Source: a virus (lineage: Duplodnaviria; Caudoviricetes). From it: 61,926 bases of DNA. The notes beneath the pieces were generated by a model, which worked only from the letters and a program-made list of their open reading frames with translations, searched no databases and was not told where the DNA came from. A program made the translations under genes and the position numbers. The stretch's first letter is position 1; each line of letters begins with the position of its first letter. Location: positions 1 through 61,926 of the IMG/VR virus record IMGVR_UViG_3300020042_007772; one strand, 5' to 3'. Positions 55,992 to 59,243 of this stretch are shown in pieces.

Positions 55992-56192
55992 TTATATTCG
56001 ATGTCCCATGTTCCCCACTTTCTTTCGACCAGACCAAGGATTTGCCACACGAGGGTCAAAGTTCCGGTAGCCCAGTTCTCGCAATTCGTCGCACTTAGCA
56101 CGACAACCGGCTTCGGACAGGTTCTTCACCGTCAGATTCGGCAAGTGCTTGGTTCCCTTCGGCCCTTTGGCGTAGAGTGTGTATGTGGTCAT
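55992..56192 (-). CDS. Hypothetical basic protein
   Basis: ATGA-coupled. Confidence 0.55.
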   Translation of the reverse strand: MTTYTLYAKGPKGTKHLPNLTVKNLSEAGCRAKCDELRELGYRNFDPRVANPWSGRKKVGNMGHRI

Positions 56193-56413
56193 CTTGGTAT
56201 CGCTATTCGTATGTACTCATTGCCTAGTCTTCTTTCCACAAATCCCTCTAACACACCCAATGCCAACAACACCTTGGCGTTGTGAACCCGATGCTCATAC
56301 GGCAACCGTTCCTCTAACACCCAGACAGGATTGAGTTCACGGGATGCCTTGGTAAGTTCCGCTTTCGGTTTGAGCGATGCGGCTAGAGTTTGAAGGAATG
56401 GAAGGTGGTTCAT
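56189..56413 (-). CDS. Hypothetical protein
   Basis: ATGA-coupled. Confidence 0.55.
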   Translation of the reverse strand: MNHLPFLQTLAASLKPKAELTKASRELNPVWVLEERLPYEHRVHNAKVLLALGVLEGFVERRLGNEYIRIAIPR

Positions 56414-56437
56414 AAAAAAAGGCCCATTTTCAGGGCC
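56414..56437 (-). terminator. Terminator after the SSB-like gene
   Basis: GGCCC/GGGCC stem followed by T7 on the minus strand. Confidence 0.6.
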
Positions 56438-56445
56438 GTTGTAAA

Positions 56446-56769
56446 CTAGAATGGCAAATCACTATTATCTTCTGGGCGTGGAACAAACGCCGGTGCCGGT
56501 GCCGGTGCTGCCGATGCGCCTTCCTTCTTCCAGGCATTCACATTGTTGTACCATTTACCGTTGTACTCATTGGCCTTGGTTTCAAAGTGAATAGTACACT
56601 CTTCGCCCAATGTCACCGATACTTTGTCGTTGAACACATCGAAAACCAGTGATTTCGGGTACTGCGGCCCTTGTTCTGTAATGACGGCCTGAAACTTGTT
56701 CCATTCGCCTTTTGCCCCCGTTCCGGTAACAACTGCTCCGACGTGAGTGATAATTCCTTTAATCTGCAT
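56446..56769 (-). CDS. DUF3127 family OB-fold protein (SSB-like)
   Basis: KGEW.K...VI....QYPK...F...NDK, EYNGKWYNNVNAWK, acidic DLPF tail. Confidence 0.88.
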   Translation of the reverse strand: MQIKGIITHVGAVVTGTGAKGEWNKFQAVITEQGPQYPKSLVFDVFNDKVSVTLGEECTIHFETKANEYNGKWYNNVNAWKKEGASAAPAPAPAFVPRPEDNSDLPF

Positions 56770-56788
56770 ACGTTAATTATTAAAAATT

Positions 56789-56848
56789 CAAAGATAAAAT
56801 ACGAGTTGTAGCTAGCAAGCCATTTTCGACGAAATGAGGTTATTTTCC
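56789..56848 (-). promoter_or_regulatory. Promoter TTG-N19-TATCTTTG with upstream TTTCGTCGAA box; repeat copy 1
   Basis: Consensus elements at 56816-56818 and 56789-56796; box at 56825-56834. Confidence 0.7.
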
Positions 56849-58246
56849 GATGGATTCCTGGATTGCCTTAAATATCTGAAACGCAACCTGGGGAACGATG
56901 GCATTGCCTGCTGCCTTTATGGATTCGTTTCGGTGCCACGCTTCAAATTTTGTAACTGCGGCTTCAAATCTCCTCGCTGCCAATGCAACTTCATGTGGCA
57001 AGAATGACAAAGAGTTTCCAAATTGCTCGGCTCGTTGTTTTCCCAATTCCTGTCCTTGTGGTGAACATCTAAATTCTTTATGTTTCCGCAAATGCTGCAA
57101 GATTGGTTCACAAAATTTCTCGCTATACGGTGATAATATCCTTTGCTCTGACCCTCTGGCCGAATATAATTGCATTGTTTGGAACAATATATCCTTTGAT
57201 TCCAACGAGTAAAGTCCTCTAATCTGTTCCCAAATCTCCTTCTGTTGAATAATTCCCCACACTTCTTGCAGATTTTTGATTCTGTTTTTTTCGCTTGTGT
57301 AGCTATTGGTATCATAAAATTGATTTACCACAAATCTAAGTAATTTATTGGAAACCCCATCATCTCGCATACGAAGTGGTGCGACAGTTGGGAAATTTGC
57401 CCAGTTGGATATTCCTGCTGAACTACCGCACAGAGGTAGTCCTTGTCCAACATATGCTTGTGGCTCTTGCTTCCAATAGGTCCCGTTCCTTTCCATTCGC
57501 TTGCTCGTGGTGTCGGCAGCATCCCGTTGAAGTCCATGTAATCCATCAACCCATTCGGTCTGTTCGCTCCGTTTTTCCGACTCGCCATTGTTTCCGCTCC
57601 CGTCTCTTTTAATGCCTTGACTCTCTCCGCATGATGAATATCGCTTGCTATTGGAGTCGGCAACAACCCCATATTTGCTGCTGTTTTCAAAGGATTTCCC
57701 GAATGCTTGCCTCTCGCATTTGTTGTGTTTGTGTCTGATCCCCCTCCGGTTGATGCATTTGGAGTGGGCAACAAACCAAACTCGATCTCTTCTATGCGGA
57801 GCGTTGACACCGCAAGCTGGCAGTACAAACGGGAATACTTCGTACCCCGCAGCTTCCAAGTCAGTTTGCACTTCGTGGAATACCAACCCTCCTGACCAAT
57901 TAACAAGGCCGAGAACATTTTCGCCCACAATCCAACTTGGCTGAACTTCTCTAATGACTCTAAGCATTTCCGGCCAGAGGTGTCTATCATCTTCTTTGCC
58001 AAGTCTTTTTCCGGCTGCGGAGTAGGGTTGGCAGGGAAACCCTCCTGTGAGAATATCAATTCTGTTTGCATATTTTGTAAAATCTGTTTTTGTTATGTCT
58101 CCGAATCCTTCCGCTTCTGGAAAGTGATGTTTTAATACTTTCTGACCAAATTCATTCCACTCGCACCAGGCAAGCGTTTCCCAACCCATCCACCGGGCAG
58201 CAAGGCTAAAACCGCCTATGCCCTCAAATAATCCTAAGTGTGTCAT
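56840..58246 (-). CDS. DNA cytosine-5 methyltransferase, alpha chain (lacks motif IX)
   Basis: Motif I LFEGIGG, IV GGFPCQ, VI ENV, VIII HRRDRVW, X AAGNAIVPQVA. Confidence 0.92.
   Translation of the reverse strand: MTHLGLFEGIGGFSLAARWMGWETLAWCEWNEFGQKVLKHHFPEAEGFGDITKTDFTKYANRIDILTGGFPCQPYSAAGKRLGKEDDRHLWPEMLRVIREVQPSWIVGENVLGLVNWSGGLVFHEVQTDLEAAGYEVFPFVLPACGVNAPHRRDRVWFVAHSKCINRRGIRHKHNKCERQAFGKSFENSSKYGVVADSNSKRYSSCGESQGIKRDGSGNNGESEKRSEQTEWVDGLHGLQRDAADTTSKRMERNGTYWKQEPQAYVGQGLPLCGSSAGISNWANFPTVAPLRMRDDGVSNKLLRFVVNQFYDTNSYTSEKNRIKNLQEVWGIIQQKEIWEQIRGLYSLESKDILFQTMQLYSARGSEQRILSPYSEKFCEPILQHLRKHKEFRCSPQGQELGKQRAEQFGNSLSFLPHEVALAARRFEAAVTKFEAWHRNESIKAAGNAIVPQVAFQIFKAIQESIGK
56917..57315 (-). 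CDS. Zn-finger HNH endonuclease nested in an alternate frame of the MTase gene
   Basis: CKKC...YCSKQC; CSICG...DVHHKDRNWENNEPSNLETLCHSCHMKLH. Confidence 0.88.
   Translation of the reverse strand: MIPIATQAKKTESKICKKCGELFNRRRFGNRLEDFTRWNQRIYCSKQCNYIRPEGQSKGYYHRIARNFVNQSCSICGNIKNLDVHHKDRNWENNEPSNLETLCHSCHMKLHWQRGDLKPQLQNLKRGTETNP
57325..58071 (-). CDS. Methyltransferase beta chain in alternate frame (carries motif IX)
   Basis: Three (L/M)LPTP repeats; QLSHHFVCEMMGFP is motif IX-like; A-rich leader TTTTACAAAAT-ATG. Confidence 0.8.
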   Translation of the reverse strand: MQTELIFSQEGFPANPTPQPEKDLAKKMIDTSGRKCLESLEKFSQVGLWAKMFSALLIGQEGWYSTKCKLTWKLRGTKYSRLYCQLAVSTLRIEEIEFGLLPTPNASTGGGSDTNTTNARGKHSGNPLKTAANMGLLPTPIASDIHHAERVKALKETGAETMASRKNGANRPNGLMDYMDFNGMLPTPRASEWKGTGPIGSKSHKHMLDKDYLCAVVQQEYPTGQISQLSHHFVCEMMGFPINYLDLW

Positions 58247-58253
58247 ATACCCA

Positions 58254-58313
58254 CAAAACTACAATACTTGCTTAACTAGCAATTACACCTTCGACCAAAT
58301 GACGTTATTTCCC
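58254..58313 (-). promoter_or_regulatory. Promoter TTG-N18-TAGTTTTG with upstream TTTGGTCGAA box; repeat copy 2
   Basis: Elements at 58280-58282 and 58254-58261; box at 58290-58299; 58290-58313 is 21/24 identical to 56825-56848. Confidence 0.68.
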
Positions 58314-58374
58314 CACAAAAAAGCCCCCATCAAAGACAAGGGCGTTTTTCAAATTGTTAACCATAAAAAAAAAC

Positions 58375-58554
58375 CTAGCTTTCTTTTTCCCTCACCTTAT
58401 ACCAATCCCCCTTCTCGTCTTTCCAATAGCTGCCACACTTGTGGTAATCATACGAGTTGTTCTTGCGCCATCTTAGCCCTAGCCGTATGGCTTCTTTGCG
58501 AGATATGACAATCTCAAATTCGTGGAGCAGGTAAAGGTAAATACGTCGTATCAT
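58375..58554 (-). CDS. Hypothetical protein (59 aa, MIRRIYLYLL...)
   Basis: ATGA overlap with 58551-58736; my translation; below the ORF-track cutoff. Confidence 0.55.
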   Translation of the reverse strand: MIRRIYLYLLHEFEIVISRKEAIRLGLRWRKNNSYDYHKCGSYWKDEKGDWYKVREKES

Positions 58555-58736
58555 AGTTGTTCTTCTGGTGATACAGCGTCCGTCATAATTCCAAATATCT
58601 CGTTAATCATGCTTTGCTGAAATCCTTCTATCCGCAAGGCTTCCTGAATGGCATTACGGAAGGCCCATGGATATACGCAGTTTTCGGTATCAATGATGAC
58701 TTCCGCTTGTTCTTTTCGTTCAATGATTATTCTCAT
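58551..58736 (-). CDS. Hypothetical protein
   Basis: ATGA-coupled. Confidence 0.6.
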   Translation of the reverse strand: MRIIIERKEQAEVIIDTENCVYPWAFRNAIQEALRIEGFQQSMINEIFGIMTDAVSPEEQL

Positions 58737-58927
58737 TTCTTATTCCTATATTCGTATTCACTATAAATCTCCACCTTACACCATTCCCTGATATGCTTAG
58801 CAATATCGCAGGCGTTGGTCATTTTTCGACAATCTTCCACCAAAGCGTGGGTCATGTTTGGCGACAAGCCGCTGTAAAACACGGCCTCATTGCCATTCTC
58901 CAAAATAAACGTCATTTTAGTTAGCAT
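58733..58927 (-). CDS. Hypothetical protein
   Basis: Coupled chain. Confidence 0.55.
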   Translation of the reverse strand: MLTKMTFILENGNEAVFYSGLSPNMTHALVEDCRKMTNACDIAKHIREWCKVEIYSEYEYRNKK

Positions 58928-59243
58928 TTTCTTCTCTCTGCTCCTCTAAAAAGTTAAACTTCTCCATATGATCAAAGAACCGTTGCTTCATGTCACTGTC
59001 CATCGAATGAATCTGGCGAACGAGGCTATAAAGCATTTCGTTCACCTCAATCTCCAAGTCCCTGTGTTCTTTTCGCAAAAGCAAATGTAGGTGTTTTTCA
59101 AACCGGTTGGCAGCGTTAATTAGCTGGTTTGTCACCTGGTTCAATGCCGGTGAGAACCGCTTGTTAGGATCGTGTTTGAGAACGTCCCCTTGAATTGTCA
59201 CCCCTTTCACGAAGGAGCAAAAAAGTGAATATTCGTTTGTCAT
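58917..59243 (-). CDS. Hypothetical helical protein
   Basis: ATG just downstream of a TATGTTTG element. Confidence 0.65.
   Translation of the reverse strand: MTNEYSLFCSFVKGVTIQGDVLKHDPNKRFSPALNQVTNQLINAANRFEKHLHLLLRKEHRDLEIEVNEMLYSLVRQIHSMDSDMKQRFFDHMEKFNFLEEQREENAN

Follow-up and report, generated by a model that had tools for sequence, protein, structure and literature searches.

Genes-in-pieces and free-standing homing endonucleases offer a first comparison: mobE of Aeromonas phage Aeh1, for example, lies inside the coding region of nrdA without an intron or intein and splits this host gene into two polypeptides, the function of which survives. The locus described here, a DNA methyltransferase gene with an HNH endonuclease open reading frame (ORF) inside it, differs in that translation of the host frame continues through the endonuclease gene to give a single chain; it lies in the Caudoviricetes record IMGVR_UViG_3300020042_007772 of IMG/VR, the whole 61,926-nucleotide (nt) stretch of which was analysed and is called the window below. 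The closest described element is the ShiLan domain, a hidden out-of-frame HNH in the mycobacteriophage methylase gp65, reported in 2025 by Arsenault, Gosselin and Gogarten (PMC11855218) and building on earlier work (PMC9957025). As its description has it, ShiLan is likewise inserted in a phage methylase, leaves the host frame free of stops, encodes in another frame an HNH with flanking zinc fingers and shows no sign of an intron or intein; its disjunct distribution is taken to reflect homing (PMC11855218). For the host gene, the precedent named in a first-pass annotation of the window holds as it was given there: in the methyltransferase M.EcoHK31I, as described, the beta chain is encoded wholly inside alpha in an alternate frame and carries motif IX (PMC2836561, PMC3404938), and we liken the window gene to it by this layout.

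The window HNH is the same kind of element as ShiLan in a separate lineage. When 50,697 phage records were searched with it by tblastn (E up to 1e-3), 25 gave hits, none of them from a Mycobacterium phage. The hosts also differ: Bacteroides phage BS-TP4 and an Arachidicoccus genome contain relatives of the window family. The ShiLan HNH is described as 195 amino acids (aa) long with a GTG start, whereas the window HNH has 132 aa and starts with ATG. Furthermore, the host gene in the window is itself overprinted, resulting in a locus of three ORFs in which the cassette truncates beta and reuses the beta tail and stop; the HNH ORF starts 0-15 nt past the beta stop, which offers a translation route, a matter that the ShiLan article, as far as its account goes, leaves open (PMC11855218). 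The host-frame product of ShiLan is described as a predicted loop or helical hairpin (PMC11855218), with which the helices predicted by AlphaFold2 (AF2) in the window alpha insert may be compared. In M.EcoHK31I, the available descriptions place the recognition domain on alpha, whereas the variable LLPTP-repeat region of the window gene lies in beta's frame; M.EcoHK31I has no nuclease insert, unlike the window gene with its HNH cassette. The kind has thus already been published for mycobacteriophages, and the window presents another HNH lineage, lodged in a gene that is itself overprinted and with translation apparently coupled to that of beta. A full-text literature search, which covered articles but not their supplements (those of PMC11855218 may list overlapping cases), returned neither a three-ORF layout nor an overprinted phage methylase family. 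We consider it probable that the element is a selfish HNH homing-endonuclease cassette, neither intron nor intein, threaded into a two-frame phage C5 methylase. Its features, in window numbering, are as follows.

56840..58246, minus strand: alpha ORF, 468 aa, C5 DNA methyltransferase (ORF list, PF00145, TIGR00675, motifs); motifs I, IV, VI and VIII (residues 1-165) are followed by a linker, the HNH-overprinted insert and motif X.
57325..58071, minus strand: beta ORF, 248 aa, nested in alpha's +1 frame and ending ...QLSHHFVCEMMGFPINYLDLW; a conserved N-part over alpha motifs IV-VIII is followed by a variable LLPTP-repeat region and motif IX (MMGFP).
56917..57315, minus strand: ORF of the HNH endonuclease (132 aa), which shares beta's frame and has an HH...N...H core and two Cys4 zinc sites.
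56933..57348, minus strand: inserted cassette (edges approximate) relative to empty alleles, net +384 nt or 128 alpha codons.
57313..57327, minus strand: junction of beta stop and HNH start, with TAA at 57325-57327, a 9-nt spacer and ATG at 57313-57315; termination-reinitiation is proposed to occur here.
57356..57751, minus strand: alpha linker (residues 166-297), a by-product frame over the beta variable region, open and predicted to be disordered.
57325..57400, minus strand: 5' flank that moves with the cassette (co-conversion-like tract), from its identity to the HNH-bearing loci L004 and L005 (88-97%, against about 45% to them in the recognition region immediately upstream).
56843..56935, minus strand: alpha C-terminus with motif X (WHRNESIKAAGNAIVPQV...), native methylase sequence 3' of the cassette according to alignments.

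The three ORFs that the first-pass annotation had placed in one gene are all present on the minus strand, with the HNH start 9 nt past the beta stop and in the same frame as it had stated, and its figure of 81% dual-coded sequence is exact (747 + 399 = 1146 of 1407 nt). The G+C content is 39.8% in the HNH segment, 44.2% in the window and 46-49% in the remainder of the gene. As the same layout occurs in dozens of independent contigs and in cultured phages, we rejected the idea that the frame changes stem from a sequencing error or a pseudogene.

Comparison of alleles with and without the insert, as proposed in the first-pass annotation, bears out an insertion. The stretch from ATGATGGG to GARTCNATHAARG spans 66 nt in 8/8 empty alleles and 450 nt in 6/6 occupied alleles measured, which accounts for the net size of the cassette. 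In the empty alleles alpha reads DDGLSARLDSITFPKWRNESIKA and beta ends ...MMGFPPDWTLLPFLNGETNP before its stop; in the window beta is shortened to ...MMGFPINYLDLW, with a new tail, INYLDLW, and a TAA stop brought by the cassette. The HNH ORF ends ...RGTETNP, which matches the ...NGETNP end of beta in the empty alleles, so that it exits via beta's old tail and stop; the last ~6 HNH codons and the HNH stop are this old tail. In alpha the insert stands between DDGVSNKL and WHRNESIKA, starting with Leu and being followed by Trp/His. A scan of viral contigs with the first 170 residues of alpha gave 598 pattern hits, 593 of which were confirmed as relatives, and the best 80 of these 593 are referred to as the closest relatives. 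The HNH is present in only one of the 80 (L070), and the window's nearest alpha relatives, L061 (96%), L060 and L062, have no HNH cassette. We conclude that the HNH segment is an insertion into an existing two-frame methylase gene.

Alpha continues without a stop across the whole insertion, in the window and in all distinct HNH sequences compared. Relatives of the HNH were drawn from protein and contig collections, giving 57 sources (the window and 56 loci); 37 distinct HNH nucleotide sequences were compared. In 50/57 sources the alpha frame (+2) has no stop anywhere along the HNH match and motif X lies downstream, while the third frame (+1) is open in 0/57. Of the seven exceptions, six (L011-L013, L056-L058) are HNH hits that are more distant or match only in part, and the seventh, L054, is a contig of 1.16x coverage. 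Zero alpha-frame stops were found in 37/37 distinct sequences, down to about 46% HNH identity, as against 4-12 per HNH ORF (mean 8.5) in the dead frame. An alpha stop arises only if an HNH codon ends in T and the next starts with AA, AG or GA, and among these stop-risk codons none ends in T (0/1232), compared with 1168/2403 (48.6%) elsewhere. Synonymous shuffles introduced 4.8-12.7 alpha-frame stops per sequence, the probability of zero stops being at most 0.001 for each; for the window HNH ORF the mean was 10.3, and 0/2000 shuffles were stop-free. The first-pass annotation had suggested measuring stop depletion in both frames, with frequent alpha-frame stops among homologues counting against it, and none were found in the 37 distinct sequences. 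Selection keeps the alpha frame free of stops across the HNH, presumably so that motif X is still made.

The HNH ORF matches phrog_1271 (E=6.1e-13), while its Pfam scores for HNH_3 (20.7 bits) and HNH (14.8 bits) are under the gathering cut-offs of 24.8 and 21.4. A PDB sequence search with the HNH profile gave generic HNH matches only, with IcmJ/DotN at E=0.014 and I-HmuI at E=0.13. The zinc finger and HNH core had been called intact at first sight, and this was confirmed by an alignment of 34 sequences, in which the catalytic residues show no degeneration: H85, H86, N93, N94, N98, H107 and H111 are invariant, as are seven of the eight zinc cysteines (including C73, C76 and C103), and the eighth, C106, is found in at least 90% of the sequences. 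The ORF thus shows the His...Asn...His pattern of the beta-beta-alpha-metal core and the CxxC...CxxC zinc site that define HNH (His-Me finger) endonucleases. Nucleotide diversity at the three HNH codon positions is 0.282, 0.286 and 0.463. Mean pairwise aa identity among the 37 distinct sequences is 0.599 for the HNH, 0.448 for the alpha frame and 0.408 for the dead frame; for the most diverged pairs the alpha frame has 0.265 and the dead frame 0.272. Wobble sites at conserved HNH residues vary freely at many positions (diversity about 0.39). The diversity by codon position, the frame identities and wobble variation that is unrelated to the alpha change together identify the HNH as the primary coding frame of the cassette, with alpha kept open and not conserved as a protein. 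The HNH is under purifying selection down to about 46% identity, and on the alpha-frame residues of the insert no selection was detectable.

The window gene is a mosaic. Between 58240 and about 57830 it shares 95-98% identity with the HNH-less L061, and in the recognition region identity is about 45%. The segment between about 57400 and 56920 instead shares 88-97% identity with the HNH-bearing L004 and L005, which in their 5' parts reach only 58-83%. A flank of ~75 nt upstream of the cassette therefore travels with it; in the public DNA run X2, one contig matches 56700-57398 and then diverges. An intact HNH and an open alpha frame stand beside decayed methylases in L015 and L029 (stops) and in three metagenome contigs that keep the cassette and the methylase 3' end, L037 (internal deletion) and L025 and L039 (upstream part of the methylase replaced by unrelated DNA). 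Homology between L039 and L040 starts exactly at the 5' edge of the cassette, marking a breakpoint of recombination where cleavage or insertion is presumed to occur. The patchy distribution, the mosaic with co-inherited flanks and the survival beside decayed methylases support homing, of which they may be read as signs; cutting of the empty allele and copying by repair would be the behaviour to which the mosaicism and the travelling flanks indirectly point.

The same observations bear on an alternative in which the phage has domesticated the HNH, for example to degrade the DNA of its host or of rival phages or to assist in replication or packaging; the nuclease would then merely be housed in the methylase gene and retained because it benefits the phage, not as a selfish homing gene. 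Purifying selection on the HNH and its survival after methylase loss would suit such a role, co-option is raised in the discussion of the ShiLan article (PMC11855218), and small zinc-ribbon HNH proteins are described as acting in packaging in other phages (PMC3592412). However, with one carrier among the 80 closest methylase relatives the HNH is dispensable; it occupies a constant site in the same gene, embedded in 50/57 sources and neither beside the terminase nor as a free gene, and co-inherited flanks and mosaicism are typical of homing. We therefore hold domestication to be unlikely.

The first-pass annotation had offered two readings, a homing-type parasite that is neither intron nor intein and keeps the host frame open, or a compact restriction-modification or phage-exclusion unit. 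The former is supported by the stop-free frame (37/37), the rarity among relatives (1/80), the mosaic and the lack of intron or intein signals; the latter is not supported. In such a restriction-modification or addiction unit, the HNH would cut DNA without alpha/beta methylation, which would make nuclease and methylase inseparable. The two genes are physically interlocked, and small HNH restriction enzymes exist. However, the HNHs of L005 and L006 are 96% identical while their recognition regions are 21% identical and differ in length (150 vs 78 aa), identities of HNH and recognition region are weakly correlated (r=0.38, 66 pairs), the HNH persists with broken or deleted methylases and thus outlives them, and 79/80 close methylase relatives do without it. 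This makes the unit highly improbable. A cognate restriction-modification pair was rejected, as HNH identity does not track the recognition region.

The position of the HNH start is consistent with a route for its translation. In 35/37 distinct loci the first HNH ATG lies 0-15 nt past the preceding in-frame stop, which is TAA in 31/37, and the two loci outside this range are remnants without beta. This spacing fits reinitiation by ribosomes finishing beta; with the HNH start so close to the beta stop, the parasite would hijack both beta's frame and its ribosomes. We propose that a cassette of about 384 nt entered the gene just after the motif IX codons, landing where alpha would be a tolerant linker only. 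In beta's frame it would supply a new beta stop and, 9 nt on, the HNH start, and would borrow beta's old tail and stop for the end of the HNH; in alpha's frame translation would continue straight through it, adding 128 residues between DDGVSNKL and WHRNESIKA, and the methylase would stay active with this 128-residue loop. The HNH, translated by termination-reinitiation after beta, would cut empty alleles at the conserved motif IX-X junction, and repair during co-infection would then copy the cassette in. Such coupling of the HNH to the overprinted beta suggests an answer to how a hidden HNH is translated, the question raised, as we understand its account, in PMC11855218.

Several points weigh against a homing cassette that is passively tolerated by its host gene. 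In a tree of the alpha N-domain (87 rows, 20 with HNH), the window is placed among HNH-less rows and HNH presence needs at least 6 changes (shuffled labels average 18.1); because starred branches force only 2 of these changes, losses or recombination within the gene, instead of repeated invasion, could account for much of the patchy pattern, and the sampling is biased, HNH-positive rows having been found via the HNH and HNH-negative rows via likeness to the window. The alpha frame is open over the HNH even beside an already broken methylase, which may reflect recent decay or hint at another role for the openness. We infer translation of the HNH ORF and of beta from their spacing only. The sequencing data consist of contigs from four runs, none with half of the window, in which uncovered stretches are uninformative and which are no proof against splicing; contigs from the RNA library run X4 join the cassette to both flanks, although as weak data, since DNA carry-over is possible. 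Finally, AF2 predicts with confidence that the alpha-frame insert folds as a helical bundle, with a predicted local distance difference test score (pLDDT) of 85-95 over much of residues 320-445; this confidence fits poorly with a passive loop, and we leave it as a tension.

The predicted bundle would be expected if the alpha-frame translation of the cassette were a functional folded domain, with true dual coding of its 384 nt. The slight excess of alpha-frame over dead-frame identity (0.448 vs 0.408) points in the same direction, as do an HNH wobble diversity little below that of non-overlapping alpha codons (0.426 at 2-fold and 0.670 at 4-fold sites) and contacts of alpha residues 372-374 with beta in the complex model described below. 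On the other hand, wobble variation is unrelated to how radically it changes alpha in a BLOSUM test (Spearman rho 0.06, p=0.77, 30 columns), the minor-base fraction being 0.27 for radical and conservative changes alike, and at low HNH identity the alpha frame is no more conserved than the dead frame (0.265 vs 0.272). No Pfam family matches the insert, an ESM Atlas search with its alpha-frame translation returned short viral hypothetical clusters only (0.90-0.91, within the chance range), and empty alleles do without it. A folded alpha-frame domain is accordingly improbable in our assessment.

Splicing would remove the insert if it were a degenerate group I or II intron or an atypical intein, the open frame then being incidental, and HNH genes are described as often carried in phage group I introns (PMC11855218). 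A search of Rfam with positions 56000-59000 at E up to 10 gave five weak, unrelated hits and no intron, and Pfam at E up to 1 detected no Hint or intein domain on alpha. There is no Cys, Ser or Thr at the insert junctions, nor is there room for a ribozyme core, because the ORF fills nearly the whole 384-nt cassette. No contig joined across the cassette was found in the four runs, which as contigs only are weak evidence. The avoidance of stops (0/1232) would be needless in a spliced RNA and would thus be left unexplained, and we regard splicing as exceedingly improbable.

The host gene of the cassette is a C5 methyltransferase. Alpha matches PF00145 (E=1.8e-44) and TIGR00675 (E=4.5e-36; 125 bits, cut-off 100.65). 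The motifs attributed to it were all found by pattern search with regular expressions written for this analysis: I (FEGIGG), IV (FPCQ), VI (ENV), VIII (HRRDR) and X (GNAIVP). In the AF2 model, alpha residues 1-165 have a pLDDT of about 90, and Foldseek matched the alpha model to M.HhaI (E=6.9e-11, 171 columns); residues 166-297 are of low complexity, with a pLDDT of 25-34 and predicted disorder. Alpha carries motif X, whereas MMGFP, which resembles motif IX, and the variable region belong to beta's frame, which is not the monomeric C5 arrangement; the enzyme is a two-chain C5 methyltransferase variant. Around motif IV, at 58020-58050, GGGTTTCCC gives G-F-P in both frames, as GGFPCQ in alpha and EGFPAN in beta (residues about 9-13). 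In two diverged HNH-bearing alleles (L022:1924-1950 and L033:1735-1761) the Pro and Cys codons of this motif are separated by an additional 6 nt, TAACTA or TAACTT, so that alpha reads GGFP*LCQPYS, with an in-frame TAA within the catalytic motif. Their sharing of this stop suggests that it may be inherited and tolerated, or recoded, as a +1 shift there would enter beta's frame.

The overprinting of alpha by beta had been presented as special to this locus, which it is not: a nested ORF with MMGFP is found in 72/80 closest viral relatives, and alpha is open through to motif X in 73/80, so that overprinting is the rule across a very large family of phage methylases. The motif IX-like end ascribed to the 248-aa ORF in the first-pass annotation is MMGFP, within the ORF end given in the list above. 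A tblastn search with beta returned 68 phage records, including 54 of Paenibacillus phages, in which the match lies within an annotated cytosine-methylase gene but in its alternate frame. Both the alpha and beta ORFs are annotated in the record of phage Tadhana and likewise in some Paenibacillus phage records, and Bacteroides phage BS-TP4 has a nested ORF of 372 aa that ends ...AEMMGFPPDWT. Beta matches phrog_1008 ('DNA methyltransferase', E=2.3e-22) and no Pfam or NCBIfam family. In the phage collection as a whole, 1536 records contain a relative of the alpha N-terminal domain, Mycobacterium phages accounting for 502, with beta-like nested ORFs detected in only the 68 records mentioned.

Where alpha motifs IV-VIII overlap the conserved N-part of beta, alpha wobble diversity is 0.306 at 2-fold and 0.408 at 4-fold sites, compared with 0.426 and 0.670 in the non-overlapping first 58 codons, and both frames are constrained in this overlap. 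Among stop-risk beta codons, 0/1783 end in T, versus 1527/4714 elsewhere (60 genes, a set partly pre-selected from open alpha spans). The variable LLPTP-repeat region of beta is likely the target-recognition domain. The location of the variable repeats in beta's frame and the low predicted confidence of alpha 166-297 suggest that recognition would reside on beta, not alpha. The two-frame arrangement of alpha and beta is ancestral.

AF2 modelled beta alone poorly (mean pLDDT 56.5). A complex model of alpha and beta scored 0.85, with 0.00 for the best control; the runs agree on at least 78% of contacts, and the partner pLDDT is at least 63. The mark used was reached by 58/80 solved complexes and 2/110 mismatched pairs. 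In the model, MMGFP of beta lies against GNAIVP of alpha, and alpha 451-453 contacts beta 238-240. Because this is a split-enzyme case, the pass may reflect no more than likeness to solved monomeric C5 methylases such as M.HhaI.

Further instances were found in other phages. The methyltransferases of Paenibacillus larvae phages (Fernvirus) have the same alpha/beta overprint, as two overlapping coding sequences, with a beta that is 31% identical over 98% of the length; they differ from the window gene in the lack of an HNH cassette and in an alpha of 356 aa rather than 468 aa. The cultured Komagataeibacter phage phiKX1 (LC644975, L141:666-2322) has all three ORFs: alpha at 666-2312 (548 aa), beta at 676-1800 (374 aa) and, just past the beta stop and in beta's frame, the HNH at 1804-2322 (172 aa), while its record annotates two 'hypothetical protein' fragments only. 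In Staphylococcus phage CUB-EPI_14, gp45 (ON325435, L140:648-2453) is a single-chain cytosine methylase of 601 aa whose frame is open through an out-of-frame HNH ORF of 160 aa (1807-2289); this ORF is 37% identical to the window HNH and unannotated as such, and its insertion site, unlike that in the window, is upstream of motif IX.

A selfish nuclease gene can therefore live in a protein-coding gene by never placing a stop in the host frame. The phenomenon reported in 2025 for mycobacteriophages extends to unrelated phages, with relatives in a Bacteroides phage and an Arachidicoccus genome and instances in Komagataeibacter and Staphylococcus phages. Whether threaded homing genes, which involve no intron, intein or gene splitting, are a widespread third lifestyle rather than a mycobacteriophage oddity, with a parasite adapted here to an overprinted host gene, is in our judgement an evenly balanced proposition. 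The very large phage C5 methylase family has an overprinted and mostly unannotated second subunit, and gene callers and methylome predictions miss both beta and the nuclease. With three ORFs over 81% of one gene, the locus is also a natural test bed for the limits of overlapping coding.

The next gene downstream of the locus, at 56446-56769 on the minus strand, encodes a protein of 107 aa with the C-terminus ...DNSDLPF, an acidic tail like that of single-strand DNA-binding proteins. In related loci, helicase, helicase-loader and VRR-NUC genes adjoin the methylase. Together, these neighbours place the methylase in the phage replication module.

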